Counted from the stretch's first letter, positions 13,046 to 59,690 are shown. The stretch: 64,000 nucleotides of DNA from Alphaproteobacteria bacterium (GCA_038137215.1 JAYQBG010000001.1:40145-104144); one strand, 5' to 3'. Notes: generated by a model from the letters alone, not told the origin. Program-made: numbers and translations.

Positions 13046-13875
13046 CTAGGCGGCGGGCGGTCCCGTCAGGACGGCGATCCGTCCGCCGCTCATCAACTCG
13101 ACCCCTGCGCCCTTGAGGGCGGCATAGGCGGCCCGGTTCACCTCGAAACGGGTCCGGAAGTAGCGTGAGCTCGGCACTCAGTACCGCAGGCCAAGAATGA
13201 TCGCACCATAGCCGAAATCATGAATTCCGACCTGGGGATCACCCCCTCAGCCAGGTTCGGAAAATCCTCGAGCGCCGCCGCGATAGCCGAAATAGCCACT
13301 TCCGGGTCGCTGGCGGCCGCGATAACGATCTGGGATTCGACGATCCGATGAGTGTCCGAGTTGACCAGAATCTCACCCACAACCTTCCGGTTGGGAATCG
13401 TGATGCGCTCCTGATCCTCGCCGATGAGAGTGGTTGCCGAAAGGTTGACTTCGTCAACGACACCACTGACATCCTGAACCAAAATGGTGTCCCCGACGGT
13501 GAAAGGGCGGGTGAGGATGATGACCAGCCCGGCGCCGTAGTTCGAGACCGGCCCCTGAATAGCGAAAGACAGGCCAAGGGCCGCCGCACCGCCCAGAGCG
13601 ACCAGCGGAGCGATATCGATCCCGAAATTGCTGAGGGTAATGATGACGACGATCACCATCAGAACGATCTTCACCACAATCCCGGCAAACCGCGAGAGGG
13701 TGACATCGATCTTGCGCCGCTCGCACAGGACGACCACCCGGCGGCTGAGGAACCCGGCGACCTTCAGACCGATCAGCAGGATGACCAGCGCGCCAATCAG
13801 CTGCAAGCCATAGGCAATGGCGAATTCCGACGCGACGTCGATGATGTTGCTGATCATCTGAATTTGCGGTTCCAT
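13046..13875 (-). pseudogene. small-conductance mechanosensitive channel MscS family, disrupted (frameshift in G5 run at 13242..13246 and in-frame TGA at 13178..13180)
   Basis: N-terminal 3-TM and beta-domain region matches MscS; after a +1/-1 shift at GGGGG the conserved C-terminal domain DPQVGIHDFGYGAIILGLRY*VPSSRYFRTRFEVNRAAYAALKGAGVELMSGG reads through a TGA exactly where MscS homologs have Trp (RVW/RYW). Confidence 0.7.
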
Positions 13876-14115
13876 GCCAAATTTCCTTGCGAGGCCGCGA
13901 TCCGGATCGGCAATTTATCGACATTCGGCCCATGCGGCCATGCCGTCCTTCATGATCCGCACCATGGGCGGCGGCAAAGCGCGGGCGCCGCGAACAGGAA
14001 CCCCAGAATTCTCTTGAAAACACGCCGCGCCATCGCGATGTAGTTCGGGCATTGCGACCGTCCTGCCGGGCGGGCCCAACGGGACACAGATTCCGGGAGA
14101 GATAATATCAGCTAT

Positions 14116-15078
14116 ATGGGTTTCCTTCTGGCCGCCATCGGACTGGCGCTGCTTCTGTTTTCGGCAGACTACATGGTGCGCGGGGCGGTCGGCGTGGCCC
14201 GGCGAATTGGTTTGTCGCCGCTGATTATCGGTCTCAGCGTGGTCGCCACCGGCACCTCCGCGCCCGAACTGGTGACAACCCTGACCGCGACGCTCGAAGG
14301 CGCCCCTGACCTGGCGCTCGGCAATGTCATCGGCAGCAATCTGGCCAATATGCTCCTGATTCTTGGGGTTGCCGCCCTGTTGCAACCGGTCACCTGTGCG
14401 CCGCGGGTGATCGCGCGTGACGGCTCCATGGTGCTGGTCGCCACGGTTCTGTTTGTGGGTGTGGCCATGACCGGCGTGATCGTCTTCTGGCACGGCCTCG
14501 TGCTGCTTGGCGCGCTCTTCGCCTATCTAGCCTATACTTATCAGGCCGAACGCAAATCCGAGGCTGACAGCCTGCACGCCAAGGAGGTCGAGGAGGTTTC
14601 GGGTGTGCCCGAACGGGCCTGGGTCGCAACAGGGCTACTGATCGGTGGCCTGATCGGGACCATCGTCGGCGCGCAATTGCTGGTGACCGGCGGTGTCACC
14701 GTTGCCGAATCACTGGGCGTTTCCAAAACCGTCATCGGCCTTACACTCGTGGCCATCGGCACCAGTCTGCCCGAACTCGCGATCGTGGTCGTGGCCAGCA
14801 TGCGCGGCCACACCGATGTCGCCCTGGGCAATGTTCTCGGCAGCAACATCTTCAACCTGCTCGGGATCACCGGCGTGGTCGCACTCGTCTCACCCCTCGA
14901 GGTGTCTGCGAGCCTGCTGCAGTTCGATATCTGGCTGTTGCTCGGCGTGACCGTGTTGCTGATTCCCCTGATGCTGACCGGCGGCCGCCTGTCCCGCCGC
15001 GAGGGTGCGCTTCTGCTTTTTCTCTACGTGGGCTTCCTGGCGTTTCAGTCCGAGAATGTGCGCGGCCTGATCCTCTAG
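14116..15078 (+). CDS. Ca2+/Na+ antiporter, CaCA family (YrbG-like)
   Basis: 320 aa; two alpha-repeat motifs GTSAPELV and GTSLPELA, 10 predicted TM segments. Confidence 0.85.
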   Translation: MGFLLAAIGLALLLFSADYMVRGAVGVARRIGLSPLIIGLSVVATGTSAPELVTTLTATLEGAPDLALGNVIGSNLANMLLILGVAALLQPVTCAPRVIARDGSMVLVATVLFVGVAMTGVIVFWHGLVLLGALFAYLAYTYQAERKSEADSLHAKEVEEVSGVPERAWVATGLLIGGLIGTIVGAQLLVTGGVTVAESLGVSKTVIGLTLVAIGTSLPELAIVVVASMRGHTDVALGNVLGSNIFNLLGITGVVALVSPLEVSASLLQFDIWLLLGVTVLLIPLMLTGGRLSRREGALLLFLYVGFLAFQSENVRGLIL

Positions 15079-15362
15079 GCGATTTGCGCACAACCAAATG
15101 CCAGACAAGTCACTGTTTTGAAACATTTTTTGAAAGCCCGGGCCATCGCACCCATGGCGTTTCAGAGCGATTTTATAAGTGGAAACAGCACGCTGTCTGG
15201 GCGCCCATTTTTTGGGCAACCCGGTAAACTCGCAATGATTTCCGGGGTAAGTGACAATCTGCGGCCCATCGCTACACAGACTTATCCACGTGAACGGGGG
15301 ACAACACGTTTCGCCATTCACCGGTTGTGAAGGCCCCCTTGGCACGGGTATTTAGCTATCTG

Positions 15363-17387
15363 ATGACTGATACCGCCGAGAACCAACCCACGACCGAAAC
15401 GGACACGTCCGCGCCCGGGAACGGGCTGGACGTGATCCGCGCGCGGTTGCGGACCCTGCCCGAAGGACCCGGCGTCTATCGCATGCTGAATGGTGACGGA
15501 GACGCGCTGTACGTTGGCAAGGCGCGCAACCTGAAACGCCGGGTGACCAACTACACCCAGTTGACGCGCCTGCCCTATCGCCTGCAGCGCATGGTGGCCG
15601 AGACCGTCGAGCTGGAGATTGTCACCACCCACACCGAGGCTGAGGCGCTGCTCCTCGAATCCAACCTCATCAAGCGGCTGGCCCCGCGCTACAATGTGCT
15701 GCTGCGCGACGACAAGAGCTTTCCCTATATCCTGCTCACCGGCCACATGGACCGGCAGACCAGCAAGACCGGGGCCGACCCCAATGTACGCAAAGCCCGG
15801 AAAGATCTCAAATCCCGGCGTCAAAACCGGGCCGGGCCCGATCCGGCCGACTGGCCGGGCGTGGTCAAATACCGCGGCGCGCGCACATTGCCGGGTGAGT
15901 ATTTCGGGCCCTTTGCATCGGCCGGTGCCGTCAATCGCACTCTCAATGCGCTCGAGCGCGCCTTCCTGCTGCGCAGTTGCTCCGACGCTGTCTTCTCGGG
16001 CCGCAGCCGCCCCTGCCTCAAATATCAGCTCAAGCGCTGTGTGGCACCCTGTGTCGGGCATGTCACGGAAGACGACTACAATCTCCTGATCGATCAGGCG
16101 CGCAGCTTTCTGACAGGCCGATCCCGCGAGATACAGGACGAGCTTGCCGCCGCCATGCAGGACGCTTCCGACCGCATGGAATTCGAGGCCGCCGCCCGCT
16201 ACCGCGACCGCATCCGCGCCATGACGCAAATTCAGTCCCATCAGGACATCAACATTGAGAATCTGGACATCCGCGACGCCGATATCGTGGCCGCCGAAGA
16301 AAGCGGCGGGCGCATCTGTATTCAGGTCTTCTTCTTCCGGTCCGGCCGCAACTACGGCAACCGGGCCTATTTTCCGCGACACGACAAATCAGAGGATATC
16401 GAGGCCGTACTTACGGCGTTTCTCGGCCAGTTCTACGAGAACAAACCGGCGCCGCCGGATATTTTGCTGAGTCACAAGCTGCCCGAGATCGATCTGATTG
16501 CCGAAGCACTCAGCGTGCGGACCGAGCGTAAGGTCTCCGCTTCTGTCCCCCAACGCGGCGCCAAGCGGAAGCTTGTCGATCACACCCGCACCAATGCACG
16601 CGATGCCCTCGAACGCCGGCTGGCGGAAAGCGCGACCACCCGCGACCTGATGGCCCAGGTCGGCGAACTGTTCGGGCTCGATTCACCGCCCGAACGGATC
16701 GAAGTCTATGACAATTCCCACGTCCAGGGCTCTCATGCGACCGGGGCGATGATTGTGGCGGGACCGGACGGCTTCATCAAACCGGCCTATCGTCGGTTCA
16801 ACATGCGCGGCGCGGCCACGAAGGATCGCGACGGATACAGCCCCGGCGATGATTTTGCGATGATGAACGAAGTCCTCACCCGGCGATTTTCCCGCGCCCT
16901 GAAAGAAGACCCGGACCGTACGAAAGGCCAGTGGCCGGACCTTATCCTGATCGATGGCGGCAAGGGTCAGCTCTCATCTGCGGCAAACGCACTCTCGGAG
17001 CTGGGAATCGATGATGTGCCCATCGTCGGGATTGCCAAGGGGCCCGACCGGGATGCAGGCCGTGAACATTTCTTCACCGTTGATGGCGATCCGGACGGGT
17101 TCCAGCTTCCGCCGCGCGACCCGGTTCTCTACTATCTGCAACGACTTCGGGATGAATCGCACAGGTTCGTGATCGGCGGACATCGACAGAAACGATCACG
17201 CGCGATCACGCATAACCCGCTCGACGAGATTCCCGGTATCGGCGCGCGGCGCAAGCGGGCCCTACTCAACCATTTCGGCTCAGCCCGCGCGGTGTCCGAA
17301 GCCGGGCTTCAGGATCTGGAAAAGGTGGACGGCATCAACAATACCGTGGCACGTCGTATATACGATTTCTTTCATACGGCCGCCTGA
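15363..17387 (+). CDS. uvrC: excinuclease ABC subunit C
   Basis: GIY-YIG motif GVYRMLNGDGDALYVGKARNLKRRV, UvrBC-interaction and RNase H-like/HhH C-terminus; alternative GTG start at 15327; contains a ~30 aa Lys/Arg-rich insertion after FPYILLTGH. Confidence 0.9.
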   Translation: MTDTAENQPTTETDTSAPGNGLDVIRARLRTLPEGPGVYRMLNGDGDALYVGKARNLKRRVTNYTQLTRLPYRLQRMVAETVELEIVTTHTEAEALLLESNLIKRLAPRYNVLLRDDKSFPYILLTGHMDRQTSKTGADPNVRKARKDLKSRRQNRAGPDPADWPGVVKYRGARTLPGEYFGPFASAGAVNRTLNALERAFLLRSCSDAVFSGRSRPCLKYQLKRCVAPCVGHVTEDDYNLLIDQARSFLTGRSREIQDELAAAMQDASDRMEFEAAARYRDRIRAMTQIQSHQDINIENLDIRDADIVAAEESGGRICIQVFFFRSGRNYGNRAYFPRHDKSEDIEAVLTAFLGQFYENKPAPPDILLSHKLPEIDLIAEALSVRTERKVSASVPQRGAKRKLVDHTRTNARDALERRLAESATTRDLMAQVGELFGLDSPPERIEVYDNSHVQGSHATGAMIVAGPDGFIKPAYRRFNMRGAATKDRDGYSPGDDFAMMNEVLTRRFSRALKEDPDRTKGQWPDLILIDGGKGQLSSAANALSELGIDDVPIVGIAKGPDRDAGREHFFTVDGDPDGFQLPPRDPVLYYLQRLRDESHRFVIGGHRQKRSRAITHNPLDEIPGIGARRKRALLNHFGSARAVSEAGLQDLEKVDGINNTVARRIYDFFHTAA

Positions 17388-17403
17388 CTCGACGGCAAAA
17401 CGG

Positions 17404-17970
17404 ATGCACCAGATGACCATCCCGAATCTGCTGACGTTTTCACGGGTCGCCCTGATCCCGTTGCTGATCCTTCTGCTGTTTCTTGAAGGTGTGCAATTCC
17501 GCTGGTGGGCCGTCGGACTCTTCGCATTTCTGGCGATCACCGACTATCTGGATGGGTATCTCGCCCGGAAACTGCATCAGCACAGCGAGCTGGGTGCGCT
17601 GATCGATCCCATTGCCGACAAGGTCCTGGTGGGGGCAATCGTCATCGCGCTGGTCGGCACCGGTGACATCGCACGCTGGGACATCGCCGGGGCAATTCTG
17701 ATCCTGAGCCGCGAATTTCTGGTTTCGGGACTGCGTGAATTTCTGGCGCTGCGCAATCTGCCGCTGCCGGTCACCAGGCTCGCGAAATGGAAGACAACCG
17801 TGCAGCTCGTCGCGATCACACTCTACCTTCTGCCCCCGCTTGGCATCGCCGGGCAATCGGGGATCACATCGGCCGTGTGGTGGCTTGCCACGGTGCTGAC
17901 GCTGGTCACCGGATACGACTACGTCACAACTGCCACCCGGCGGCTCTCAGATCGCAGTCCGGAGCGCTGA
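17404..17970 (+). CDS. pgsA: CDP-diacylglycerol--glycerol-3-phosphate 3-phosphatidyltransferase
   Basis: CDP-alcohol phosphotransferase motif DYLDGYLAR ... GALIDPIADK. Confidence 0.85.
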   Translation: MHQMTIPNLLTFSRVALIPLLILLLFLEGVQFRWWAVGLFAFLAITDYLDGYLARKLHQHSELGALIDPIADKVLVGAIVIALVGTGDIARWDIAGAILILSREFLVSGLREFLALRNLPLPVTRLAKWKTTVQLVAITLYLLPPLGIAGQSGITSAVWWLATVLTLVTGYDYVTTATRRLSDRSPER

Positions 17971-17971
17971 C

Positions 17972-18520
17972 GTGAACGCCGAGACAAAGATTGCGGGCAT
18001 CGTCGGCTGGCACAACAGCGGCAAGACCACCCTCCTGGTGGCCGTCGTTGAGGAGCTCGTGTCACGCGGCCATCGCGTCTCGACGGTCAAACACGCGCAT
18101 CACGCCCTCGATGTGGACACGCCCGGCAAGGATTCCTGGCGGCATCGCAACGCCGGCGCGACGGAGGTCATGGTCGGATCCAAATCACGCTGGGCCCTGA
18201 TGCACGAACTGCGCGGTGCAGCGGAACCGGATCTGGACACGCTGATCGCCCGAATGAGCCCTGTCGATCTCGTGCTGGTCGAGGGCTTCAAGACCGCGCA
18301 GCATGACAAGATCGAGGTGTATCGGGACGGAATTGAAGAACCACCCATCGCTTATACCGACAGCCGGGTGGTGGCTGTCGCGAGCGATGTCCGCCTCGAA
18401 CGCCTTGGCAAGGGCGTGACCCGGCTCAATATCAACGAGCCTCGCGCGGTCGCCGATTTCATCGAACACCATTGGGCGTTGCAGCACCGCACCCCGGCGC
18501 AGTCCCCGCAGCGAAGCTGA
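17972..18520 (+). CDS. mobB: molybdopterin-guanine dinucleotide biosynthesis adapter MobB
   Basis: P-loop GIVGWHNSGKTTL and MobB family body. Confidence 0.85.
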   Translation: MNAETKIAGIVGWHNSGKTTLLVAVVEELVSRGHRVSTVKHAHHALDVDTPGKDSWRHRNAGATEVMVGSKSRWALMHELRGAAEPDLDTLIARMSPVDLVLVEGFKTAQHDKIEVYRDGIEEPPIAYTDSRVVAVASDVRLERLGKGVTRLNINEPRAVADFIEHHWALQHRTPAQSPQRS

Positions 18521-18523
18521 GCC

Positions 18524-19801
18524 ATGGCACAGCTTTCCGACGATTGTTTTGCCCCCGGTGAGGGACTGTTGCCCGCAGAGACGGCCCTTCAGACTCTGCA
18601 GGACCGGCTTGAGACCGTCGTGGAAACAGAAATCCTGTCGCTTCAGGATGCCGCCGGACGCATTCTCGCCCGGGACGTGATTTCCGAACGGGATGTCCCG
18701 CCCCACGACAATTCCGCCGTGGACGGATACGCGGTGTACTACAACGACCTGGCCGACAACGAGGATACCGAACTTCCGGTGATCGGCCGGGCAGCCGCCG
18801 GACAGCCCCTGGGCGGAGTCATGAACTCCGGGACGGCCCTGCGTATTTTCACCGGCGCCCCGATTCCGGGCGGCGCGGATGGCCCGGACACGATCTATAT
18901 GCAGGAAGACAGCCGGACCCGCACCGAGGGGGACACGACCTTTGTGATCCTGCCACCGGGAATTTCCCGCGGCGCCAATCGCCGGTCACGCGGGGAGGAT
19001 GTGCCGGCCGGGGAAACCGTGCTGCGCCGTGGCGACCGTCTGCGTCCGCAGGATATCGGACTTGCCGCCTCGCTCGGCCTCTGCGAACTCCATGTCTTCG
19101 CGCCCCTGACAGTCGGAGTCCTTTCCACGGGAGATGAGGTGTTTGAGCCGGGCGCCAGCATGCCGGAAGGCGGCATCTATGATGCGAACCGGCACGCCCT
19201 GATCGCGGTTCTCTCGGATATGGGATGTACCGTGAAGGATCTGGGAATCATCCCGGACCAGCCCGCAAAGATCGCCCGAGCCCTGAAATCCGCCGCCGAC
19301 ACCTGCGATGCCGTGATTTCAACCGCCGGCATGTCGGTCGGAGAAGAAGATCATCTGGCCGCCATGGTACGCGAGATGGGCTCGCTGTACTTCTGGAAGG
19401 TCGCCATCAAGCCCGGTCGACCGATCGCCTTCGGGCAGATTGGCCAAACGCCCTTTATCGGTCTGCCGGGCAACCCTGCCGCCATGATGGTCACGTTTCT
19501 GCGTATGGCACGCCCGGCATTGCTCCGGCTGGCCGGGCTCCGGGATGCCAGGCCCCGCCTCTATCCGGTCCGGGCCGGGTTTGCGCACCGCAAGAAAGAA
19601 AACCGCAGGGAATATGTCAGAGTGCATCTGGAAGACGGTGCCGATGGTATTCCGGTCGCCCGCAAACACCCGCGCAGCGGTGCCGGTATTCTCTCCTCGC
19701 TGGTGGGATCTGACGGTCTAGTTGAATTGCCCGAGGAGATGACCCAACTTTCGGAAGGAACAATGGTATCCTTTCTGCCCTTCACGGAAGTGGCCCGATG
19801 A
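18524..19801 (+). CDS. moeA: molybdopterin molybdotransferase MoeA
   Basis: 425 aa; gephyrin-like MoeA domain order, GGVSMG-like MSVGEEDHL block. Confidence 0.9.
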   Translation: MAQLSDDCFAPGEGLLPAETALQTLQDRLETVVETEILSLQDAAGRILARDVISERDVPPHDNSAVDGYAVYYNDLADNEDTELPVIGRAAAGQPLGGVMNSGTALRIFTGAPIPGGADGPDTIYMQEDSRTRTEGDTTFVILPPGISRGANRRSRGEDVPAGETVLRRGDRLRPQDIGLAASLGLCELHVFAPLTVGVLSTGDEVFEPGASMPEGGIYDANRHALIAVLSDMGCTVKDLGIIPDQPAKIARALKSAADTCDAVISTAGMSVGEEDHLAAMVREMGSLYFWKVAIKPGRPIAFGQIGQTPFIGLPGNPAAMMVTFLRMARPALLRLAGLRDARPRLYPVRAGFAHRKKENRREYVRVHLEDGADGIPVARKHPRSGAGILSSLVGSDGLVELPEEMTQLSEGTMVSFLPFTEVAR

Positions 19802-22825: not shown

Positions 22826-24178
22826 ATGTCCGCGATGAAAGACATCTTCCGCATGCCCCGGGACCTTCGGCTGTCGCTGAAGCGATTTCTGCCGCGCGGT
22901 CTGCTCGCGCGCTCCCTGCTGATTATCGTCGTGCCGCTGGTGCTGCTGCAGATCGTCAGCGGCATTATCTTTTACGACCGGCACTGGTCGAATGTGAGCC
23001 GCCATCGCGCCAATGCCCTGGCCGGTGATATCGCCCTGATCTTGGAGCTGATCAATCGGGACACGCTCAACAACAATCAGGCTGCGATCTTCAGTCTTGC
23101 CCGCAGCACCCTCGATTTGATCATCGAATACGAACCGGACGCCATTCTGCCCAACACCGAATTCAAACCTTCGGGCAATCTGGAAGTGACGCTGGCGCGC
23201 TCAATCAATGAAATCGTGCAACGTCCGGCCGTGATCGACACGACGAGCACCTACAACCGGGTGCTGATCGACCTGCAGTTGCCATCCGGCATCCTGCGCG
23301 TATCGGCCAACGAAGAACGGTTGATCAGCTCGACCACAAAGATCTTCATTCTGTGGATGACCGGGACCTCGCTGATTCTTTTCGCGGTCGCGACCTTGTT
23401 CATGCGCAATCAGGTCAGCCCGATCCGGCGTCTGGCGACCGCCGCAGAAAACTTCGGCAAGGGCCGCGACACCCCGAATTTTAAACCCTCGGGCGCAAGC
23501 GAGGTGCGCCAGGCAGCCACGGCCTTCATGGCCATGCGCAGCCGGCTCGAGCGCCAGATCCAGCAACGCACGGACATGCTGGCGGGGGTCAGCCATGATC
23601 TACGGACTCCGCTGACCCGGATGAAACTCCAGATCGCGATGCTCGATAAAAATGCCGAGATCGAAGAACTGAGCTCGGATGTCGCGGCGATGGAAAGCAT
23701 GATCGAGGGCTATCTCAACTTCGCCCGCGGTGAAGGCACCGAGGAACGCCAAATCGTCAATGCGGTAGACCTGCTGGAGGAAGTCGCACGGGACGCCGGT
23801 CGGAATGGTCCCCCCGTCAAAGTCACCATCACGGACGAGGTCGAATTGCCGCTGGCGCGCAATGCCATGCGGCGTTGCCTGACAAACCTTGTCGAAAACG
23901 CCCGACGGCACGGCGATGTCACGGAACTCACGATCCAGCGAAACGGACGCGTCCTGGAAATCTATGTCGATGACAACGGCCCCGGAATCGCGCCAGAATT
24001 GCGCGAGGACGTGTTCCGCCCGTTCTTCCGGATCGATTCCTCCCGCAACACAGAGACCGGCGGGACCGGCCTGGGCCTGTCGATCGCGCAGGATGTCGTC
24101 AGCGGTCACGGCGGAGAGATCAGTCTGACCGACTCCCCCCTCGGCGGTCTGCGCGTCGCGCTTCGGATTCCGATCTAG
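22826..24178 (+). CDS. envZ: EnvZ-like osmosensor histidine kinase
   Basis: Two N-terminal TM segments, HAMP, H-box LAGVSHDLRTPLTRMKLQIAML, G-boxes DDNGPGIAPE / GTGLGLSI; alternative starts at 22835 or 22853. Confidence 0.8.
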   Translation: MSAMKDIFRMPRDLRLSLKRFLPRGLLARSLLIIVVPLVLLQIVSGIIFYDRHWSNVSRHRANALAGDIALILELINRDTLNNNQAAIFSLARSTLDLIIEYEPDAILPNTEFKPSGNLEVTLARSINEIVQRPAVIDTTSTYNRVLIDLQLPSGILRVSANEERLISSTTKIFILWMTGTSLILFAVATLFMRNQVSPIRRLATAAENFGKGRDTPNFKPSGASEVRQAATAFMAMRSRLERQIQQRTDMLAGVSHDLRTPLTRMKLQIAMLDKNAEIEELSSDVAAMESMIEGYLNFARGEGTEERQIVNAVDLLEEVARDAGRNGPPVKVTITDEVELPLARNAMRRCLTNLVENARRHGDVTELTIQRNGRVLEIYVDDNGPGIAPELREDVFRPFFRIDSSRNTETGGTGLGLSIAQDVVSGHGGEISLTDSPLGGLRVALRIPI

Positions 24179-24510
24179 AAGAGCTTGCCGCCGTTCGGTA
24201 CCGGCTTGTCAATGGCCAGCAGGATGACCTCTCCCGCCGCATCGGGAAATCCGAGAACAAGAATTTCGGACATGAACTTGCCGATCTGCTTGGGCGGAAA
24301 GTTCACCACCGCAGCCACCTGACGGCCAACCAGAACGTCGGGCGTGTAGTGCACCGTCAACTGCGCCGAGGTCTTCTTAACGCCGATCGCCTCACCGAAA
24401 TCGACCCAGAGCTTGGTGGCGGGGCGCCGCGCTTCGGGGAAGGGTTGCGCATCGACAACGGTCCCCACACGGATATCGACCCTGGCGAAATCCTCGAATG
24501 AAATCTCTAT
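24175..24510 (-). CDS. CsaA-like tRNA-binding (EMAP/OB-fold) protein with no canonical start codon
   Basis: C-terminal 110 aa match CsaA (DIRVGTVVDAQPFPEARRPATKLWVDFG ... AVVNFPPKQIGKFMSEILVLG ... PVPNGGKLF); the position aligned to homolog Met is ATA (24508..24510), 4 nt after the TetR stop. Confidence 0.55.
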   Translation of the reverse strand: MEISFEDFARVDIRVGTVVDAQPFPEARRPATKLWVDFGEAIGVKKTSAQLTVHYTPDVLVGRQVAAVVNFPPKQIGKFMSEILVLGFPDAAGEVILLAIDKPVPNGGKLF

Positions 24511-33697: not shown

Positions 33698-34411
33698 ATG
33701 CGACTGGTTGTAGGTCTTGGAAATCCGGGACCGAAATACAGAAACAACCGACACAATATCGGCTTCATGGCGGCGGACGAAATCGTTCGCCGCCATGGGC
33801 TTTCTGCGCCCCGGTCCAAGTTCCAGGGTGAGGTCAGCGAAGGCGAGATCGGGGGTGACAAGGTCATGGTTCTCAAACCCGCCACCTTCATGAATGAATC
33901 CGGACGCTCCGTCGGCGAAGCGGTCCGTTTCTACAAACTGAATACCGAAGACGTCTTTGTAATCTATGACGAGATCGACCTGGCCGCCGCGAAAATTCGT
34001 GTCAAACAGGGCGGCGGTCATGCCGGCCATAACGGGCTGCGCAGCATTGACGCCCATCTCAGCGATAAGAACTACTGGCGGGTCCGGCTGGGGATCGGAC
34101 ATCCGGGCGAAAAATCCCAGGTGAGCAATCACGTCCTCGGAGACTTCTCGAAACAGGACCGGCTCTGGGTCGAACGGGAACTGGATGCACTGGCCGCCGA
34201 GCTGCCGTTGCTGCTCAGCGGTGAGACGAACGACTTAATGAGCCGTGTCGCGATGGCCGCGCAGGGCGGAAAAGCAAACAAACCGGCAGAGACGCCCGCC
34301 CCTCCGGCGGAAGCTCGGCACGAGCACGGCAATCCCGCCGTCAAGGCGGACGAAACCGTGCTCGGGCAGGCACTGTCTCGCGCCATGAACCGATTGCGGG
34401 GACGCGACTGA
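33698..34411 (+). CDS. pth: peptidyl-tRNA hydrolase
   Basis: LVVGLGNPGPKYRNNRHNIGFM and GHNGLRS catalytic blocks; ~45 aa C-terminal extension. Confidence 0.9.
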   Translation: MRLVVGLGNPGPKYRNNRHNIGFMAADEIVRRHGLSAPRSKFQGEVSEGEIGGDKVMVLKPATFMNESGRSVGEAVRFYKLNTEDVFVIYDEIDLAAAKIRVKQGGGHAGHNGLRSIDAHLSDKNYWRVRLGIGHPGEKSQVSNHVLGDFSKQDRLWVERELDALAAELPLLLSGETNDLMSRVAMAAQGGKANKPAETPAPPAEARHEHGNPAVKADETVLGQALSRAMNRLRGRD

Positions 34412-34412
34412 T

Positions 34413-35513: not shown

Positions 35514-35563
35514 GGCTAGGATGCCGACCGCAACAAAACATCATTTCACCGGGGAGAGTACAC

Positions 35564-36232: not shown

Positions 36233-36242
36233 TCTTTGAACG

Positions 36243-36273
36243 CGCCCCGCTGCGATCAACGCGCAGCGGGGCG
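36243..36273. terminator. bidirectional hairpin terminator between convergent genes
   Basis: 12-bp perfect inverted repeat CGCCCCGCTGCG-atcaacg-CGCAGCGGGGCG. Confidence 0.5.
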
Positions 36274-36281
36274 CCGTCCGA

Positions 36282-36833: not shown

Positions 36834-36966
36834 TCTTCGATTTCCCTCGTTTCCAGGAAGCAGCCAGCAACAAGCAGCCGGCTCAAACCCGAAACGTCTG
36901 AAAACCGTGGCCGTTCCCCAACGATTTCGCGGCAGTCCCCGCTATCGCGAAGAAAATCCCATAGCG

Positions 36967-37863: not shown

Positions 37864-37983
37864 CTTTCAAACTCCCAACGCGTACGATCTGGCTCACAGA
37901 CGCACCATGATCGCTCGACATCCATTGTATTACGTCAATGCCCCAACGGAAAAGGCGCACCAATCCGGAACGTGAGCCCCGAT

Positions 37984-38874
37984 TCAGCCCAGGACCCGGC
38001 CGGCGACCACCTCCAGACGCTGCGCAATCCCCGGATCGCGCGCATCCGGTGCGGTGATCAACGCATTGTCGAGGCTCGTGTGGCAGCCCTGGCCACACAC
38101 CGCATCACGCTCTGAGAGCCGCGGCACAAGGGCACGAATCAGCGCACGGCCCTTGTCGGCATTTTCAAACAGGATTTTGATCACCTGTTCAACGGTAACG
38201 TCGTCATGATCGTCGTGCCAGCAATCGTAATCGGTCACCATGGCCACTGTGGCGTAGCAGAGTTCCGCTTCGCGGGCGAGTTTGGCTTCCGGCATGTTGG
38301 TCATCCCGATCACCGAACAGACCCAGGACCGGTAGAGTTCCGATTCCGCGCGGCTCGAGAATTGCGGGCCTTCCATCACCAGATAGGTCCCGCCACGCAC
38401 AGCGTCGATGCCGACCTCATCCGCCGCCGCGGCAAGGTGGTCACCCAGCCGGCTGCAGACCGGATCGGCCATCGAGACATGTGCAACCAGCCCGGTCTCG
38501 AAGAAGGATTTCACCCGCGCAAAGGTTCGGTCGATGAACTGGTCCACGATCACGAAGGTTCCCGGCGGTAGGTCTTCGCGTAACGATCCCACAGCCGACA
38601 GGGACACAATTTCCGTGACACCCACACGCTTGAGCGCCTCGATATTGGCCCGAAAGTTCAGCTCGGATGGCGGTACCCTGTGGCCGCGCCCGTGGCGAGG
38701 CAGAAACACCACCTGCTGTCCGTCCAGGGTGCCGAACATCAGTTCGTCGGACGGCGCTCCATAGGGCGTATTGACTCCTTCCCAGCGGACATCGCTGAGG
38801 CCCTCGATATCGTAGATACCGCTGCCCCCGATAATGCCCAGCACGGGCGGGACGGATGCGTGGTTCGCCGCCAT
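37984..38874 (-). CDS. mtnP: S-methyl-5'-thioadenosine phosphorylase
   Basis: LGIIGGSGIYDI ... FLPRHGRGHRVPPSELNFRANIEALKRVGV, PNP/MTAP family. Confidence 0.85.
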   Translation of the reverse strand: MAANHASVPPVLGIIGGSGIYDIEGLSDVRWEGVNTPYGAPSDELMFGTLDGQQVVFLPRHGRGHRVPPSELNFRANIEALKRVGVTEIVSLSAVGSLREDLPPGTFVIVDQFIDRTFARVKSFFETGLVAHVSMADPVCSRLGDHLAAAADEVGIDAVRGGTYLVMEGPQFSSRAESELYRSWVCSVIGMTNMPEAKLAREAELCYATVAMVTDYDCWHDDHDDVTVEQVIKILFENADKGRALIRALVPRLSERDAVCGQGCHTSLDNALITAPDARDPGIAQRLEVVAGRVLG

Positions 38875-38883
38875 CCTGCTCTC

Positions 38884-39765
38884 CTACTGGCTGCGCGGCA
38901 GCAATTCGAGCAGTTCGGCGGCCCGTTCCGGTTCGACCGGTTCTGCGTCGAGTTCACGCATGATTCGCACGGCCTTCTCCACGAGTTGCGCATTGCTGGC
39001 GAAGACGCCCTTCTCCAGATAGAGATTATCCTCGAGGCCAACACGCACATGCCCGCCATTGTTGACGGATTCCGCGACGATCTTGAATTCGGAGCGGCTG
39101 ATCCCGAAGGCCGCCCAGTTGGCATTGCGCGGCAGCATGCTCTCCATCACCTGCAACATCTGCGGTGTCGCCGGTGATCCCCAGGGGATCCCAAGGCAAA
39201 GCTGGAACAACGCGGGGCTTTCGATTAGGCCCTTCTCGATCAGGTCAATCGCAAAGCGGATATGGCCCGGCTCGAAGACTTCGATCTCGGGCTTCACGCC
39301 GGCATCCTTGATCATTTCAGCCATCTTGCGCAGATGGGCCGGCGTGTTCATGAACACCGCCTCGCCGAAATTCATGGTGCCGCAGTCGAGCGTGCAGATG
39401 TCCGGACGCAGTTCCAGAACATGCCGCAGACGAATTTCCGGGGTGGTGAGCGTCGATTCCTCGTTGCCCATCATCGGGTTGTCGTCGCTGGGAATAAACC
39501 GCGCGCCTTCACCGGTGGTCAGGTTGATCAGGATGTCACAATCGGCGTCGCGAATCCGTTCCACCACCTCGCGGAAATAGGCCGGGTTCCCCGACCGCGA
39601 ACCATCCGGCTCGCGCACATGAATATGCGCCACGGCTGCGCCGGCCTGGCGGGCCTCGATTGCCTCATTAGCAATCTGCTCCGGCGTGATCGGAAAGTTC
39701 GGATGATTGTGAAAATTCATATGCCCGCCGGTCAGCGCGGCAGTCACAATGGTTTCGTTGGCCAT
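38884..39765 (-). CDS. 3-keto-5-aminohexanoate cleavage enzyme family (BKACE/DUF849) protein
   Basis: TAALTGG ... HIHVREPDGS ... TIM-barrel BKACE blocks. Confidence 0.8.
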   Translation of the reverse strand: MANETIVTAALTGGHMNFHNHPNFPITPEQIANEAIEARQAGAAVAHIHVREPDGSRSGNPAYFREVVERIRDADCDILINLTTGEGARFIPSDDNPMMGNEESTLTTPEIRLRHVLELRPDICTLDCGTMNFGEAVFMNTPAHLRKMAEMIKDAGVKPEIEVFEPGHIRFAIDLIEKGLIESPALFQLCLGIPWGSPATPQMLQVMESMLPRNANWAAFGISRSEFKIVAESVNNGGHVRVGLEDNLYLEKGVFASNAQLVEKAVRIMRELDAEPVEPERAAELLELLPRSQ

Positions 39766-39841
39766 GTTTCCCCCTTTGCGGTGTTTGTTTTCGGATCGGA
39801 CCGGTGCGTTAGTGTACCGGAAAGGTCCGTCCGGGCTTACG

Positions 39842-39877
39842 AAAAAGGCCGCTTGCAGTCCCGCAAGCGGCCTTTTT
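39842..39877 (-). terminator. rho-independent terminator of petABC operon
   Basis: AAAAAGGCCGCTTGC-agtcc-GCAAGCGGCCTTTTT symmetric hairpin with flanking A/T runs, 3' of petC stop. Confidence 0.7.
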
Positions 39878-39893
39878 GCGCGATTCAGAATTC

Positions 39894-40679
39894 TCAGTGG
39901 TGAACGTCAGACCACATCTTGCGTTTGGCCGCGTACAGAACCGCGCTGAAGATGATCAGGAACAGGATCACCTTGTAGCCCATGGATTTACGCTCTTCCA
40001 TCTCGGGTTCGGCCGCCCAGTGCAAGAAATTTGTTACGTCCCATGCCATTTGTTCGATCGTTGCGGGTGTACCGTCGGTGTATTCCACACCGTCTTCCCA
40101 GAGCGGCTGCGCCATCGCGATCAGGCTACCGCGGAAATACGGGTTGTAGTTGGCGCCCTCAGGCACTTCGACATCTGCAGGCGGTTCCTCGTAGCCAGTC
40201 AGAAGCGCATAGATGTAGTCCGCGCCGCCCAGATGCGCCTTAACCTGAAGCGAGAGATCAGGCGGTGCAGCACCATTGTTGGCCGCCGCCGCAGCCGCTG
40301 CATTCGGGAAGGGTGAATCAAACCGGTCTGATGGAATGGCCGGCCGCGTGAACATTTCACCTTCATCATTCGGCCCATCGGTGACATCGAAACCAGCCGC
40401 AATGACCTTGACCTCGTCCTCGGTAAATCCGAGCTCTTCGAGGTTGCGATAGGCGACCTGCTTCAAGCCATGGCAGCCCGAGCAGACTTCCAGATAGACC
40501 TGCAGGCCACGCTGGGCGGATGCGCGATCGAAGGTTCCGAAGACACCCTCGAACTGCCAGTCCTGATTGTCCGGTTCCTTGGCTTCCCCCGCCGCAAACG
40601 CTGCGGTGGACGCAAGGCTGGCAACGACGGTCAGACCCGTGGCTGCCGCTGCGCGGCGAAGATTGCAAAAGATACCCAT
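39894..40679 (-). CDS. petC: cytochrome c1
   Basis: Heme motif CSGCHGL, C-terminal TM anchor; start overlaps petB stop by 1 nt (TAATG). Confidence 0.9.
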   Translation of the reverse strand: MGIFCNLRRAAAATGLTVVASLASTAAFAAGEAKEPDNQDWQFEGVFGTFDRASAQRGLQVYLEVCSGCHGLKQVAYRNLEELGFTEDEVKVIAAGFDVTDGPNDEGEMFTRPAIPSDRFDSPFPNAAAAAAANNGAAPPDLSLQVKAHLGGADYIYALLTGYEEPPADVEVPEGANYNPYFRGSLIAMAQPLWEDGVEYTDGTPATIEQMAWDVTNFLHWAAEPEMEERKSMGYKVILFLIIFSAVLYAAKRKMWSDVHH

Positions 40680-42013
40680 TATGCCTTCTCCATCGGCTTG
40701 GCAGTTAAGGCCGCACCCGATGTGCCACCACCCAGAACAGCCTCGGAAATACTCTTCGGCACGGGCTTTGGACGCTCGAATATTCCCAACAACGGCATTA
40801 GCACCAGGAAGTGGAAGAAATACCAGAAGGTGGAGATGTACCCCAGATGGATGATGTGGAAACCTTCCACGCCCGAGAACACCGGTACATCCGTGGGCTT
40901 ACCGCCGACATAGCCGAGAATGAAGCAGTCGATCACAAGGATCCAGAAGAACCACTTGTAGAGCGGCCGGAACTTCGCACTGCGCACCGGCGAACGATCA
41001 AGCCAGGGCAGCAGGAATAACACGAAGATCGCGCCGAACATGGCAATGACGCCGCCGAGCTTGGCTTCGATCAACGTCTGACCGAGTATCACGATGTCGA
41101 AATCGATCGAACGGAGAATCGCGAAGAACGGCAGGAAGTACCATTCGGGCACGATATGTGCGGGCGTGTTCAGCGGGGCCGCTTCCAGATAGTTCTCCGG
41201 CTCACCCAGATAGGACGGGGCGTAGAACACGAAGAACGCCATGATCGTGACGAAGACCGCCAGACCGACGCTGTCCTTGACCGTGTAGTAGGGATGGAAC
41301 GGCACCGTATCCTGCGGTCCCTTGGGGTCCACACCAAGCGGGTTGTTGGAGCCCGTGACGTGGAGCGCAATCACATGCAGCACGACCACACCCAGGATCA
41401 GGAACGGGAAGAGATAGTGCAGCGCGAAGAAGCGGTTCAGTGTGGGGTTGTCAACCGAGAAGCCGCCCCAGAGCAACGTCACAATGCTGTCACCGACCAG
41501 CGGCACGGCAGAGAACAGGTTCGTGATAACCGTCGCGCCCCAGAAACTCATCTGACCCCAGGGCAGGACGTAGCCCATGAAGGCCGTGGCCATCAACAGT
41601 ACAAGGATGACCACACCGAGCATCCAGAGCAGTTCGCGCGGCTGCTTGTAGGAGCCGTAATACATGCCGCGGAACATGTGGATATAAACGGCGATGAAGA
41701 AGAAACTTGCACCGTTCTGATGCAGATAGCGCAGCAGCCAGCCATAGTTCACGTCGCGCATGATGCGTTCGACGGAATCGAAGGCCAGCGCCGTGTTCGG
41801 CTGATACTGCATGGCCAGGAAAATCCCGGTCGCGATCATCATCACGAGCATGAAGGTCAGGATCGCCCCGAAGTTCCAGAACCAGTTGAAGTTCCTGGGT
41901 GCCTCGAACTCGGCGTATTCCTTCTGAAGATACGTAAAGACCGGCAGGCGACTGTCGATCCACTTGACGAGGCCGCTACCTGTGCCTCCGGTCTGATGTG
42001 TTCCGGCGCTCAT
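40679..42013 (-). CDS. petB: cytochrome b
   Basis: 444 aa; conserved His ligands and PEWY-type motif ([17 protein letters not shown]). Confidence 0.95.
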
Positions 42014-44330: not shown

Positions 44331-44720
44331 ATGACCTCCATCACCCGGTGACTGCTCGCGCCCCTTCTCACTCTTGCGGTCCTGTTTGGCACCAGCGTAG
44401 TCCAGGCTGACGACCTGCCGCTCCAGGCATTCTATGGCCACTATCAGGGCTCCGGTGTCGCAGAAAACTCAGATAGCCTGTACTTCGGTGTCACCGTCCG
44501 CGACCTCGATGTGCGCAGCCCCGACGGACTCGGCTGGGCGAGCATCAATGAGCCCACACTGACCGTTCACGTGCTGCGGATTACCGACACCGGCGGCTAC
44601 GTGATTCAAACCTATGACCGGACGCTGGAAGGCACCGGCATGAAGCTCAAATTCGTGAATGTTGCCAATGGCGAGCCACAGCGTGAGGTCGAAGCCCGGC
44701 TCGTGAAAGTCGGCAACTAA
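44331..44720 (+). pseudogene. small secreted protein (paralog of the following gene) with TGA at codon 7 inside the signal peptide
   Basis: ATG 44331: MTSITR-TGA-LLAPLLTLAVLFGTSVVQA|DDLPLQAFYGHYQGSGVAENSD...; same frame as ORF 44511..44720; remainder is a compact version of the downstream 196 aa protein. Confidence 0.5.
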
Positions 44721-44732
44721 CCCGACTCATCT

Positions 44733-45323
44733 ATGACAGGATTTTCCATGAACCCCGGTTCAAGCCTCCGCGCCGCGCTGGTCGCATCCGTTGTTGTTCT
44801 TTTCAGCGGCGTGAGCGCGCATGCCAGTGACGCGGTCGACAAGTTCTTTGGTTCCTATGTGGGGTCCGGAACCGCAGAGCGGGTTGACCGCAAGGAAAGC
44901 GAAATCCGCGACCTGGACGTGACGGTGGAGAGCTACAAGGATGACGGTTTCAAGCTGAAATGGATCACGGTCGTGCGTGGCGCCGATGGCGCACGCACCG
45001 GGGAAGACGTGAAACGGCGCGAGGTCGAGGAAAATTTCGTGCCCGTCGAGGACAAGGAAAACGTCTTTGTTTTATCCGCCGATGGCGTTCTGTTCCAGAA
45101 GTCCGAACTGCCGAACCCGTTGCTCGGACAAGCCATCAGCTGGGCCTCCATCGACGGCAACGTGATGAAGGTCTATTCGCTGGCAATCGGCGAGACCGGG
45201 ACCTCCGAACTGCAGGTCTATCGGCGCACTTTGACAGAAAAGGGCATGGGCATCGTCTTCATCCGGCTTCAGGACGATGACGTGAAAGTCCGTATGCAGG
45301 GCACACTGGTCCGTACCCAGTAG
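44733..45323 (+). CDS. secreted hypothetical protein (tandem paralog)
   Basis: Signal peptide AALVASVVVLFSGVSAHA|SD; shares FxGxYxGSGxAE ... RDLDV ... and C-terminal YxRTLTEKGMGIVF blocks with the upstream gene. Confidence 0.6.
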   Translation: MTGFSMNPGSSLRAALVASVVVLFSGVSAHASDAVDKFFGSYVGSGTAERVDRKESEIRDLDVTVESYKDDGFKLKWITVVRGADGARTGEDVKRREVEENFVPVEDKENVFVLSADGVLFQKSELPNPLLGQAISWASIDGNVMKVYSLAIGETGTSELQVYRRTLTEKGMGIVFIRLQDDDVKVRMQGTLVRTQ

Positions 45324-47995: not shown

Positions 47996-48039
47996 GATGC
48001 GCACACAGTAGCATCGGCAGCATCGGCAGGAGCAATGTA

Positions 48040-58056: not shown

Positions 58057-58074
58057 ACCTCGTCGGAAGAACGC

Positions 58075-58148: not shown

Positions 58149-58216
58149 ATCGCTCAGCGTGGACACTATATCGCGCGTGTGTTCACGCATCGCAAGCCGT
58201 CTCGAGCACGAAATAC

Positions 58217-59287
58217 CTAGTCGAAGCTCTGATGAATGTCGCCATCCTTGCGCAGCAACTCAAGATCGGCTTGCACCATCTCCTTGACGAGTTGTGCGAA
58301 GGGGGTGCTGTGCTCCCAGCCGAGGACGCGCTTTGCCTTGGACGGATCACCGAGTAGCAGGTCGACTTCGGTCGGCCGGAAGTAACGCGGATCGATGGCA
58401 ACAAGCTCCACACCCGTGGCCTTGTCGATTCCAACCTCGTCCACACCCTCACCGTGCCATTCGATTTCGCGTCCGATCTCGGAGAAGGCAAGCTCGACAA
58501 ATTCCCGCACGGCGTGGGTTCCGCCCGTGGCCAGAACATAGTCGTCGGGGTCGTCCTGCTGCACGATGCGCCACATGCCCTCGACATAATCGCGGGCATG
58601 TCCCCAGTCACGTTTCGCATCGATATTTCCGAGAAACAGTTTCGACTGCAGACCGAGTTCGATGGCTGCCACGGCACGTGTGATCTTTCGGGTCACGAAC
58701 GTCTCACCACGAACCGGACTCTCATGGTTGAACAGAATGCCGTTCGAGGCATGCATGCCATAGGCTTCACGATAGTTCACGGTGATCCAGTAGGCGTAAA
58801 TCTTCGCTGCCGCATAGGGACTGCGGGGGTAAAACGGCGTGGTCTCGCTCTGGGGTGTTTCCTGCACCTTGCCGTAAAGTTCCGAGGTCGATGCCTGGTA
58901 GAACCGTGCGCTGTCTTCCATCTTCAGAATGCGCATGGCCTCGAGCACACGCAGGGTTCCCAGCGCATCGGAATTGGCCGTGTATTCAGGTGTCTCGAAG
59001 CTGACCTGGACATGACTTTGTGCCGCCAGATTGTAGATTTCTGAGGGTTGAACTTCCTGGATGAGGCGGATCAGATTCGTCGCATCCGTCATGTCGCCGA
59101 AATGCAGATGAAACTGGACACCGCTTTCGTGGGGATCGAGATAAAGATGATCCACACGCCCGGTATTGAAAGACGATGAGCGGCGTTTCACACCGTGAAC
59201 TTCGTAACCCTTCGCGAGCAAAAGTTCGGCGAGATAGGCCCCGTCCTGACCGGTGACACCTGTGATGAGGGCGACATCCTTCGCCAT
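58217..59287 (-). CDS. gmd: GDP-mannose 4,6-dehydratase
   Basis: [27 protein letters not shown] ... [10 protein letters not shown]; colinear with Gmd. Confidence 0.95.
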
Positions 59288-59411
59288 GGCTCAACTCCGA
59301 GAATAGTGCCTGGTTCACCCCGCTGGCGGAACGATGCTGCCGGACGGAGTGTGTGTATGATTCGCGCGACTATACTTGTCGAGTCAAACCGCACACAAGG
59401 ACGCCATACCC

Positions 59412-59690
59412 ATGGACAATCCGAGTATGCCCTGGAGCCTGATCGGGGTCAGCGATGAAGCGCGAAAGATCATCCGCGTTGCGGCTGCGGAGAACAACCA
59501 GACGATCGGTCAGCGAAATTCAGACATTGCTGACGCGGCTGGGCTTCGATCCGGGCATTGCCGACGGGCGTGCCGGCAACAAACGACGGAAGCCATTCGC
59601 AACTATCAGCGTGAACTGGGTCTGCCGGTCAATAGACAGCCCAGCGAAGACCTGCTCAGGCATCTGCGCCAAATTGCGGGAGTCCGCTAG
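59412..59690 (+). pseudogene. peptidoglycan-binding (PG_binding_1) domain protein, frameshifted
   Basis: Domain VSEIQTLLTRLGFDPGIADGRAGNK (frame of ORF 59455..) continues as TTEAIRNYQRELGLPVNRQPSEDLLRHLRQIAGVR* (frame of ORF 59376..59690) only if the AAA run at 59581..59583 is AAAA; N-terminal boundary (ATG 59412 with AAGGAC, or ATG 59455) unresolved. Confidence 0.45.

Follow-up and report, generated by a model that had tools for sequence, protein, structure and literature searches.

Lesion-bearing genes in a 64-kb stretch of an uncultured alphaproteobacterial genome

Five damaged genes and their intact counterparts

The window analysed here is a stretch of 64 kb holding about 64 genes, and its lesion-bearing genes span positions 13046..59690. 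Same-species contigs drawn from ENA, JGI, Logan and NCBI (98.6-100% identical, designated by L numbers below) were compared with it and supplied the ancestral state at each site. The species occurs in numerous metagenome assemblies from the environment (JGI, ENA, Logan) and seems to be missing from the GTDB representatives; judged by HemF, its closest named relatives are Rhodospirillales/Kiloniella-like MAGs of marine origin, the best HemF match being 85% identical. The initial annotation had reported lesions in five conserved genes. All five are present in the sequence, and comparison of the same loci in close relatives recovered the ancestral state at every gene: nucleotide-level positions were obtained for eight lesions, with an intact longer homologue or an ATG allele available for all five genes.

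The first is an MscS-family mechanosensitive channel pseudogene (13046..13857, minus strand) with two lesions, whose intact allele of 270 aa is encoded in nine same-species contigs. A G5 run in gene sense (13242..13246, minus strand) stands where relatives have G6 and produces a -1 frameshift; the extra G (alignment column 13247) is found in nine sister contigs and is absent from the window and from the error-prone MAG L004. The second lesion, a TGG (Trp) turned into a TGA stop (13178..13180, minus strand), is private to the window clade, position 13178 being G in all ten other contigs compared, L004 included. Both lesions are thus exactly those that had been claimed, a missing G in the run and TGA for Trp. 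The repaired translation matches PF05552, PF21088, PF00924 and PF21082, and all four Pfam domains were detected only with one G restored and the TGA read as Trp. In the unrepaired gene, the C-terminal domain is interrupted and lies out of frame, and no single frame unites the TM helices with the beta and C-terminal domains.

The second is a periplasmic chalcone-isomerase-like gene (PF16036, Chalcone_3; 36282..36833, minus strand), in which one nonsense codon splits the product into 100 + 78 aa. Once repaired, the protein matches PF16036 with E=1.5e-28 (Pfam); used as a query against genome contigs, it found no relative. An intact allele of 183 aa is present in L036 and L037, which read ...QSWSEPLD... 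at the site. The TAG (36531..36533, minus strand) therefore stems from GAG (Glu101) by a G>T transversion; the in-frame stop had been correctly called, but its proposed descent from TGG had not. In a three-way comparison, this TAG is private to the window.

Beside hemF lies a pseudogene for an uncharacterised secreted or periplasmic protein (44331..44720, plus strand; orthologues 183-187 aa), with no Pfam match. Its orthologues adjoin hemF in >30 related MAGs, and an intact tandem paralogue follows at 44748..45323. Here, too, the earlier claim of a TGA at codon 7 (44349..44351, plus strand) stood, whereas a Trp origin did not: L122 and L123 read CGA (Arg) here, the closest orthologues likewise have Arg, and the change is C>T. 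The claim had also overlooked a 162-bp in-frame deletion (44506..44519, plus strand; junction 44512/44513) with GATGyGC microhomology at its flanks. Alignment to L122 and L123 at the DNA level, and to ten orthologues at the protein level, revealed that this deletion takes out 54 conserved residues (…VEWTSVIRGGGDPNNPD…). Rescue by a downstream start was considered and rejected, as no canonical start lies 3' of the TGA, and with 54 aa deleted such a start would be of no consequence. Across the species, independent alleles of this gene carry E175>TAA, ATG>ATA, a frameshift close to codon 118, or R7>TGA together with the deletion of 54 aa; a fully intact 183-aa allele was not found among the 15 cluster members listed.

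The fourth gene, a PodJ-like polarity-factor gene of ~630 aa when whole, is reduced to a 279-bp stump (59412..59690, plus strand), in which an N-terminal PWxxxGV..EAR motif is joined out of frame to a C-terminal PG_binding_1 domain. Intact orthologues are 618-658 aa long with Sel1 and PG_binding_1, and JGI labels one of them 'localization factor PodJL'. We take the family to be PodJ on the basis of this product name, the domain content and the N-terminal motif. Like PodJ/PodJL of Caulobacter and Rhizobiales, the orthologues in related MAGs have WSVKG..EAR, a coiled coil, one TM segment, Sel1 and PG_binding_1. Unlike them, the gene of this species is broken, with TM segment and linker gone and the remainder in three frames, and the window keeps 279 bp only. 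A GGTCAG at 59508..59513 (plus strand) is the sole copy left of a 6-bp direct repeat, present twice, 850 bp apart, in L016, and marks the junction of an 850-bp deletion. Downstream, a C was lost after 59577 (GGCC>GGC; 59576..59578, plus strand), which frameshifts the PG-binding domain; L016, L019 and L022 have the extra C. When it is restored, the domain lies in a single frame (...IADGRAGQQTTEAIRNYQRELGLPV...) and PG_binding_1 is detected (Pfam). The frameshift had been rightly recognised, but the base is not the A of an AAA run that had been proposed, a candidate we rejected because a C put back after 59577 yields the allele seen in L016, L019 and L022; the 850-bp deletion had escaped notice. 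Of this gene, the window keeps 33 N-terminal codons and the PG-binding domain only, in differing frames, and the full architecture (N-terminal motif, TM, Sel1, PG_binding_1, about 620-660 aa) is not found. In L016, about 376 codons are kept, spread over three frames, and a T was lost independently of the C loss in the window clade.

The fifth gene, for a CsaA-like tRNA-binding protein (24175..24510, minus strand), has 111 codons and is intact apart from an ATA start. Its tRNA-binding domain is complete, PF01588 covering residues 13-108 (profile positions 1-95 of 96). The ATA (24508..24510, minus strand) occupies the place of the start ATG, as had been claimed: at position 24508 the window, L026, L027, L030, L032 and L033 have A, and L029 alone has G. 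Since ATG persists in this one contig of the species, the ATA is a recent derived allele and not a conserved feature. Gene callers begin the protein at a downstream GTG in the ATA contigs (97 aa) and give the full 111 aa in L029.

Loss of CsaA function through the ATA start is uncertain. The gene may instead be alive, with ATA serving as a weak start aided by termination-reinitiation and expression lowered, which we regard as possible but somewhat doubtful. The ATA allele occurs in 6/7 same-species sequences (the window and 5/6 contigs) from both clades, with the open reading frame otherwise intact in all, and the start lies 4 nt past the TGA that ends the TetR-like gene upstream, a TGA-TCCG-ATA geometry that suits translational coupling. 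Near-cognate starts (AUA, AUU, AUC, CUG) have been studied by Hecht et al. (bioRxiv 10.1101/063800), with AUA initiation in E. coli at ~0.02-3% of AUG; the CsaA ATA resembles them in its position at the aligned start, right after an upstream stop, and differs in being a candidate start known here from its sequence. On the other side, there is no Shine-Dalgarno upstream of the ATA, and initiation 30- to 5000-fold lower is near null. The reading frame holds just 2 synonymous and 1 nonsynonymous differences, too few to test selection.

Natural mutations versus consensus errors

One cause suggested for these lesions was assembly from error-prone reads. This is refuted by separately assembled contigs, which share every lesion: L118 (a Logan contig with a broken MscS allele identical to the window's), L001/L025 (Logan, the chalcone-isomerase-like gene split identically by TAG), L014/L119 (the secreted-protein allele, from another run), L018/L020/L021/L023 (the PodJ-like stump with its 850-bp junction) and L030 (the ATA). 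These contigs are 99.8-100% identical to the window, with no indels. Lesions in three of the five genes (secreted protein, PodJ-like stump, ATA start) were seen in other samples; the contigs confirming the MscS and chalcone-isomerase-like lesions come from run SRR26337518 only, possibly the window's own, and so represent a separate assembler on perhaps the same reads.

That noisy reads introduced the stops and frameshifts as errors in the consensus is accordingly very unlikely. One lesion does fall within a G homopolymer (MscS), and GCA_038144615.1, the sole other deposited genome of the species, is indel-ridden and lacks the same MscS G. However, each lesion turns up again in one or more contigs assembled separately, three of them in other samples; substitution stops and microhomology deletions of 162 bp and 850 bp bear no read-error signature; and the lesions spare all essential genes, where artefactual indels would ignore gene importance. 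The remaining ORFs are open (59/59), essential genes among them untouched. Against 30 kb of own-clade Logan contigs, the window shows zero indels except for a 9-bp intergenic polymorphism, and no coding indels outside the pseudogenes. Moreover, three genes carry multiple lesions (MscS 2, secreted protein 2, PodJ-like at least 3), a pattern that real pseudogenes should show and random read errors should not. GCA_038144615.1 (NCBI; L004, L123) exemplifies how assembly error looks, in contrast to the window: it shows 71 gap positions over 12.5 kb and breaks UvrB, UvrC, YchF, cytochrome b, MTAP and BKACE.

Recoding is more improbable still, to the point of being negligible. Under this explanation, TGA would encode Trp or selenocysteine, the TAG would be read through, or the G run would support a programmed frameshift or phase variation. 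One TGA does sit at a Trp position of relatives, and the MscS indel lies in a G run. Yet TGA is the stop in 26/59 intact genes and Trp is written TGG 272 times, so that the genetic code is standard; the other TGA stands for Arg and the TAG for Glu; and G5/G6 is short for phase variation in a gene that has a second lesion. The usage of stop and Trp codons, along with Arg as the ancestral codon, led us to reject both code 4 and selenocysteine at TGA.

Real mutational inactivation, the other possibility that had been raised, is supported by the lesions shared among separate contigs and by the three genes with at least two lesions each. We conclude that the lesions are probably genuine natural mutations in a wild, putatively estuarine or marine, alphaproteobacterial population. 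The window sequence is trustworthy, and these genes are best annotated as pseudogenes (CsaA as a weak-start gene) and not 'repaired'.

Lesion density and selection in the window

Free-living bacteria usually have a pseudogene share of 1-3%, which 5/64 exceeds. The density of about 8% that had been called unusual is nominally high, but an excess is not decisive: the binomial probability of at least 5 in about 64 depends on the background assumed (0.009 at 2%, 0.043 at 3%, 0.22 at 5%), and the comparison is post hoc. Among the five, CsaA merely has a weakened start, and one gene is an old remnant common to the species.

Sister contigs cover 42 kb of the window (contig sequence totalling 173 kb). 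Over this region, the window gained two nonsense mutations and one frameshift in otherwise intact genes, whereas the sister contigs show one frameshift only, in SnoaL of L009. Look-ups with cytochrome b, YchF, HemF and MoxR returned only window-clade contigs, and 41.6-54.5 kb is therefore without a long sister-clade contig; exact-protein look-ups with TetR from its GTG and MscS from its MISN start gave no match because the called starts differ.

The lesions had further been described as G:C to A:T transitions and homopolymer indels. Three of the four substitutions are indeed such transitions, the fourth being G:C>T:A, while only 1/4 indels lies in a true homopolymer.

An AT-biased spectrum with a build-up of lesions could point to reductive decay, in which a host-restricted or bottlenecked lineage experiences relaxed selection genome-wide. 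Reductive genome evolution occurs in recently host-restricted bacteria such as Shigella and Mycobacterium leprae. Another example is Sodalis glossinidius (PMC7067036). In such genomes, an AT-biased spectrum accompanies the accumulation of nonsense, frameshift and deletion lesions in conserved genes, and the window resembles them in both respects. Lesions in about 8% of genes, three genes newly inactivated in the window lineage, and private changes that are strongly AT-biased (49 GC>AT/TA versus 17 AT>GC/CG) with an N:S of 0.74 would all fit such decay. Unlike genomes undergoing this type of reduction, however, the window is dense in coding sequence (92.6%), has no IS elements seen, shows neither elevated dN/dS nor a lineage-specific nonsynonymous excess, and retains essential and housekeeping genes intact.

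Over 34 kb of intact genes, pairwise comparison with the sister clade gives a dN/dS of 0.21, and the window-private N:S of 29:39 matches that of sister-contig singletons (46:67; Fisher P=0.88). A signal of lineage-specific relaxed selection obtained against the sister majority (29:39 versus 14:67, P=0.001) was rejected as a tip-versus-consensus artefact, as it is gone against singletons. The window branch is not inflated, the three lineages having similar lengths (75, 63 and 91 sites private to each over 17.6 kb). GC content is 60-65% throughout the window (61% overall), there are no large intergenic remnants, and no transposase was found among Pfam-annotated calls over about 6.5-64 kb. The species is, moreover, present in many environmental metagenomes. 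Reductive decay is thus decidedly unlikely, and the host-restricted or relaxed-selection lineage that had been offered as a cause is not supported, given the dN/dS of 0.21, an N:S like that of the sisters and dense coding. These sequence comparisons likewise do not support whole-genome decay. A cluster of lesions in 64 kb does not, on its own, point to host restriction, and in this window normal purifying selection acts on the neighbours.

Origin of the pseudogenes and possible selected loss

We think it likely that the window represents a clonal lineage of an uncultured alphaproteobacterial species in which five dispensable genes carry natural loss-of-function or weakening mutations. With similar assurance, we regard these as ordinary young or slowly eroding pseudogenes at the strain level and not as a sign of whole-genome decay. 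The lesions would have arisen by AT-biased point mutation (TGG>TGA, CGA>TGA, ATG>ATA, GAG>TAG), by slippage in short runs (G6>G5, CC>C) and by deletion between short direct repeats (162 bp, 850 bp). The MscS and chalcone-isomerase-like genes may be recent knock-outs in the window lineage only; the secreted-protein and PodJ-like genes may be eroding across the whole species, with lesions differing by lineage; and CsaA would carry a start-codon down-mutation that is the common allele of the species. Genes neighbouring the lesions are under normal purifying selection. We infer that the five genes are dispensable, the secreted protein having an adjacent paralogue and MscS being usually multi-copy, and that the lesions are neutral or nearly so.

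Kuo and Ochman 2010 (PMC2916853) reported that bacterial pseudogenes are mostly strain-specific and young, with few degraded survivors. The window agrees with this pattern: most of its lesions occur in one lineage, first hits, later hits and deletion are represented, the same gene has been separately inactivated by different mutations, and highly degraded remnants are few. It differs in that the organism is an uncultured environmental alphaproteobacterium seen in metagenome contigs, and in that 5/64, a window-only count, lies at the upper end of the range. The window offers a population-backed example of pseudogene birth and erosion in a free-living uncultured bacterium, with single and second hits, microhomology deletions and independent lesions.

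Recurrent, independent knock-outs of the secreted-protein and PodJ-like genes in co-occurring lineages could instead be advantageous, for example through escape from a phage or predator with a surface or periplasmic target or through a shift from polar attachment, although we consider this improbable. At least 4 damaged secreted-protein allele classes exist within a species ~1% divergent, and the PodJ-like gene has a C loss in the window clade, a separate T loss in L016 and the 850-bp deletion. Relaxed selection since the ancestor of the species would nevertheless give the same pattern, and redundancy with the intact tandem paralogue suffices as a cause. The absence of an intact secreted-protein allele is a statement on the 15 cluster members listed, with 12 more in existence, and numbers are small. 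A joint reading, in which loss of both genes is advantageous, the window lineage is the most advanced and the CsaA ATA is a selected down-tuning, appears slightly less probable again. Neutral or nearly neutral erosion of dispensable genes remains our preferred account.

It is mildly interesting in its own right that the secreted-protein and PodJ-like genes carry independent lesions that differ between lineages.

The chromosomal segment and its same-species contigs

GC content stays at 60-65% along the whole 64-kb window, coding density is 92.6%, and the approximately 64 genes form a typical alphaproteobacterial chromosome set, including uvrB, uvrC, moaD/E, moeA, the petABC bc1 complex, hemF, prs, ychF, ispE and a moxR/DUF58/Bat cluster (Pfam labels were taken from gene calls on related contigs). 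Outside the five-gene finding, 59 of 59 genes are open. Stop codon usage (TGA 26, TAG 23, TAA 10), together with Trp encoded as TGG, indicates the standard genetic code. Among GTDB representatives, the nearest species-level genomes are uncultured marine/estuarine alphaproteobacterial MAGs (HemF identity ≤85%), followed by Kiloniella, Sneathiella and other Rhodospirillales-like taxa (~70%).

Many same-species contigs were retrieved by exact-protein look-ups. One set, the window clade (99.5-100% identity), comes from Logan assemblies of the SRR263375xx runs and from JGI 3300066313/16; a second, the sister clade (identity about 98.6-99.3%), comes from ENA ERZ273130xx/131xx, JGI 3300018413/15/17/876, DRR337533 and SRR30621797; the third consists of one NCBI MAG, GCA_038144615.1. 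From these contigs we read the ancestral base at each lesion, and whether a lesion was peculiar to one assembly. Two small intergenic indels are polymorphic within the species: 9 bp (48010..48018, between DUF1285 and moxR) missing from contigs L120 and L121, and, in the spacer separating uvrC from the Na/Ca exchanger gene, a 2-bp insertion in sister contigs at 15126/15127. The BKACE gene (38884..39765, 882 bp) shows 23 synonymous and 1 nonsynonymous differences to sister contig L036; its dS of about 0.11, versus an average of 0.019, looks like recombination import from a more distant lineage.

Inactivating or weakening changes in five genes

The five broken genes described in the initial annotation proved real and well localised, but its nucleotide-level readings were wrong for two of them and two deletions had been missed. 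For the MscS channel gene (13046..13857, minus strand), the diagnosis of a lost G plus TGA for Trp was fully correct: read in gene sense, positions 13246-13242 form a G5 run in the window against G6 in nine sister contigs, and the codon at 13180-13178 is TGA in the window and TGG in 10 of 10 other contigs. The sister allele encodes an intact 270-aa protein, and repairing the window translation recovers all four MscS Pfam domains. Both lesions are also present in Logan contig L118 (SRR26337518), which matches window 13061-14454 with 100% identity. In the chalcone-isomerase-like (CHI-like) gene (PF16036; 36282..36833, minus), the reported in-frame TAG (36533-36531) indeed cuts the protein into 100 + 78 aa, and Logan contig L001/L025 is called with the same split. 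The proposed origin from TGG did not hold: in sister contigs L036 and L037 this codon is GAG (Glu) within an intact gene for a 183-aa protein, so the stop is a G>T transversion.

As first noted, the CsaA-like gene (24175..24510, minus) has ATA in place of the start Met (24510-24508), 4 nt beyond the TGA that ends the TetR-like gene upstream; the CsaA-like tRNA_bind domain is complete. ATA is shared by the window and contigs L026, L027, L030, L032 and L033, spanning both clades, and ATG is found only in L029. AUA initiation in E. coli is roughly 0.02-3% of AUG (bioRxiv 10.1101/063800), and the ATA allele may be null or a strong down-mutation.

Elsewhere, an MsrA-family protein (12489..13004, minus; PF01625, E=8e-59) has Arg (CGC) in place of the GCFWG catalytic Cys, giving the motif GRFWYSQ; 40 of the 40 closest representative homologs have Cys at that site. 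The window protein recurs unchanged in 28 collection blocks from both clades, with 2 synonymous and 0 nonsynonymous differences to the sister. Substitution and identity together point either to a putative 'dead' enzyme that has been conserved or to a sixth, cryptic lesion.

The secreted-protein gene (44331..44720, plus) carries the reported TGA at codon 7 (44349-44351), where L122, L123 (CGA, Arg7) and the closest orthologs have Arg. It also carries an initially overlooked second lesion, a 162-bp in-frame deletion (junction 44512/44513, GATGyGC microhomology at the flanks) that removes 54 residues nearly invariant in all orthologs (183-187 aa). Both lesions recur in L014/L119, from a different run (SRR26337517). 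Alleles elsewhere in the species carry different damage: GAA>TAA nine codons from the end in many contigs (174- and 178-aa products), start ATG>ATA in some, for which gene calling begins at a TTG further upstream (178- and 187-aa products), and a frameshift near codon 118 in one 1801-bp JGI contig, which yields both a 127-aa and a 76-aa product. The 15 cluster members listed include no 183-aa allele that is fully intact (the cluster has 12 further members). An intact tandem paralog lies downstream (44748..45323). In more than 30 related alphaproteobacterial MAGs, hemF is directly followed by such a tandem pair of paralogous genes for small secreted proteins (about 185 aa; 44331..45323 in the window, loci L038-L063). 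The proteins share the near-invariant core FYGHxQGSGVAENSDSLYFGVTVRDLDV…VEWTSVIRGGGDP, match no Pfam family and form a conserved uncharacterised family.

The 'PG-binding protein' ORF (59412..59690, plus) is the stump of a far larger, PodJ-like gene. Intact orthologs in related organisms (618-658 aa; one is labelled 'localization factor PodJL' by JGI) comprise an N-terminal WSVKGV..EAR motif, a coiled coil, one transmembrane segment, Sel1 repeats and a C-terminal PG_binding_1 domain. In sister contig L016 the remnant spans about 376 codons over three reading frames, without transmembrane segment and linker, and inactivation therefore predates the split of the sampled lineages; a T corresponding to window 59546 has also been lost, in L016 alone. 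In the window clade a further 850 bp are gone between two copies of GGTCAG, of which one is left (59508-59513), as is one C after 59577 (GGCC>GGC). A frameshift had been recognised without this deletion, and an extra A was thought to be needed in an AAA run; we rejected that position since, with the C restored as in L016, L019 and L022, the PG-binding domain reads IADGRAGQQTTEAIRNYQRELGLPV in a single frame. Deletion junction and C-less allele recur in L018, L020, L021 and L023 (three runs and one JGI sample). The secreted-protein and PodJ-like genes have each been hit repeatedly and independently, which could reflect selection for loss; this reading is unlikely, since relaxed selection and a redundant paralog next door are explanation enough.

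Assembly error and lineage decay as proposed causes

Two causes had been offered for the lesions: assembly from error-prone reads, or decay of a host-restricted or relaxed-selection lineage. Every lesion was found again in at least one separately assembled contig, and those in the secreted-protein gene, PodJ-like stump and CsaA-like start also in other samples; the confirming MscS and CHI-like contigs come from SRR26337518, possibly the window's own read set, and so confirm the lesions by a separate assembly, though perhaps from the same reads. Compared with 30 kb of window-clade contigs, the window differs by a single indel, the 9-bp intergenic polymorphism. The lesions are thus not assembly errors. 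The NCBI MAG (L004 and L123; contig JAYQOC010000005.1) is itself riddled with single-base indels, with 71 gap positions in 12.5 kb and UvrB, UvrC, an aminotransferase, YchF, cytochrome b, MTAP, BKACE and further proteins split, making it unsuitable as a reference for pseudogene calls.

Lineage decay was not supported either. Across 34 kb of intact genes, pairwise dN/dS between window and sister clade is 0.21 (dS 0.019), and in a three-way comparison over 17.6 kb, private sites number 75, 63 and 91 (window, MAG, sister), giving similar branches. The 29 nonsynonymous and 39 synonymous window-private coding changes appear high against sister consensus changes (14:67, P=0.001), but have the same ratio as singletons of individual sister contigs (46:67, P=0.88), and therefore show the surplus of not-yet-purged mutations that is normal for tip branches. 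No transposase appeared among the Pfam-annotated gene calls (about 6.5-64 kb), and the window has no long non-coding remnants. On this evidence the lineage does not appear to be decaying. The probable cause is ordinary: naturally arisen pseudogenes, plus one allele with a weak start, in genes that a free-living population can probably do without; some of them are recent and lineage-specific, and others have been eroding across the species. This agrees with published pseudogene dynamics, in which pseudogenes are mostly strain-specific and young, the same gene is occasionally inactivated more than once independently, and a few degraded copies survive (PMC2916853).

Lesion density and mutation classes

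Lesion density in the window is nominally enriched: for 5 of 64 genes, the binomial P(≥5) is 0.009, 0.043 and 0.22 at backgrounds of 2%, 3% and 5%, a range based on the pseudogene literature, although the observation is post hoc and the five include one old species-wide remnant and one start-codon change only. In the 42 kb that sister contigs also cover (contig sequence totalling 173 kb), two nonsense codons and one frameshift are new in the window; in window-intact genes, no sister contig has a nonsense or start-loss change and one has a frameshift. This contig, L009 (JGI 3300018417), has an extra G at the site of window 12285 that cuts a SnoaL-like gene (12067..12477) to a 78-aa call, and null alleles therefore segregate in the sister clade too. 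Nonsense changes account for 2/68 window-private versus 0/113 sister singleton coding changes, a non-significant difference (about P=0.14, Fisher estimate).

The substitutions comprise three G:C>A:T changes (TGG>TGA, CGA>TGA, ATG>ATA) and one G:C>T:A change (GAG>TAG), and the indels G6>G5, CC>C and two deletions between short direct repeats. Because stop codons are AT-rich, a GC>AT bias among stop-creating changes is barely informative. Among all private changes (9794..19005 and 34326..41612), G:C>T:A transversions make up 15/75 in the window versus 14/154 for the two remaining branches; this slight surplus may be noise, or a hint of differences in oxidative-damage repair.
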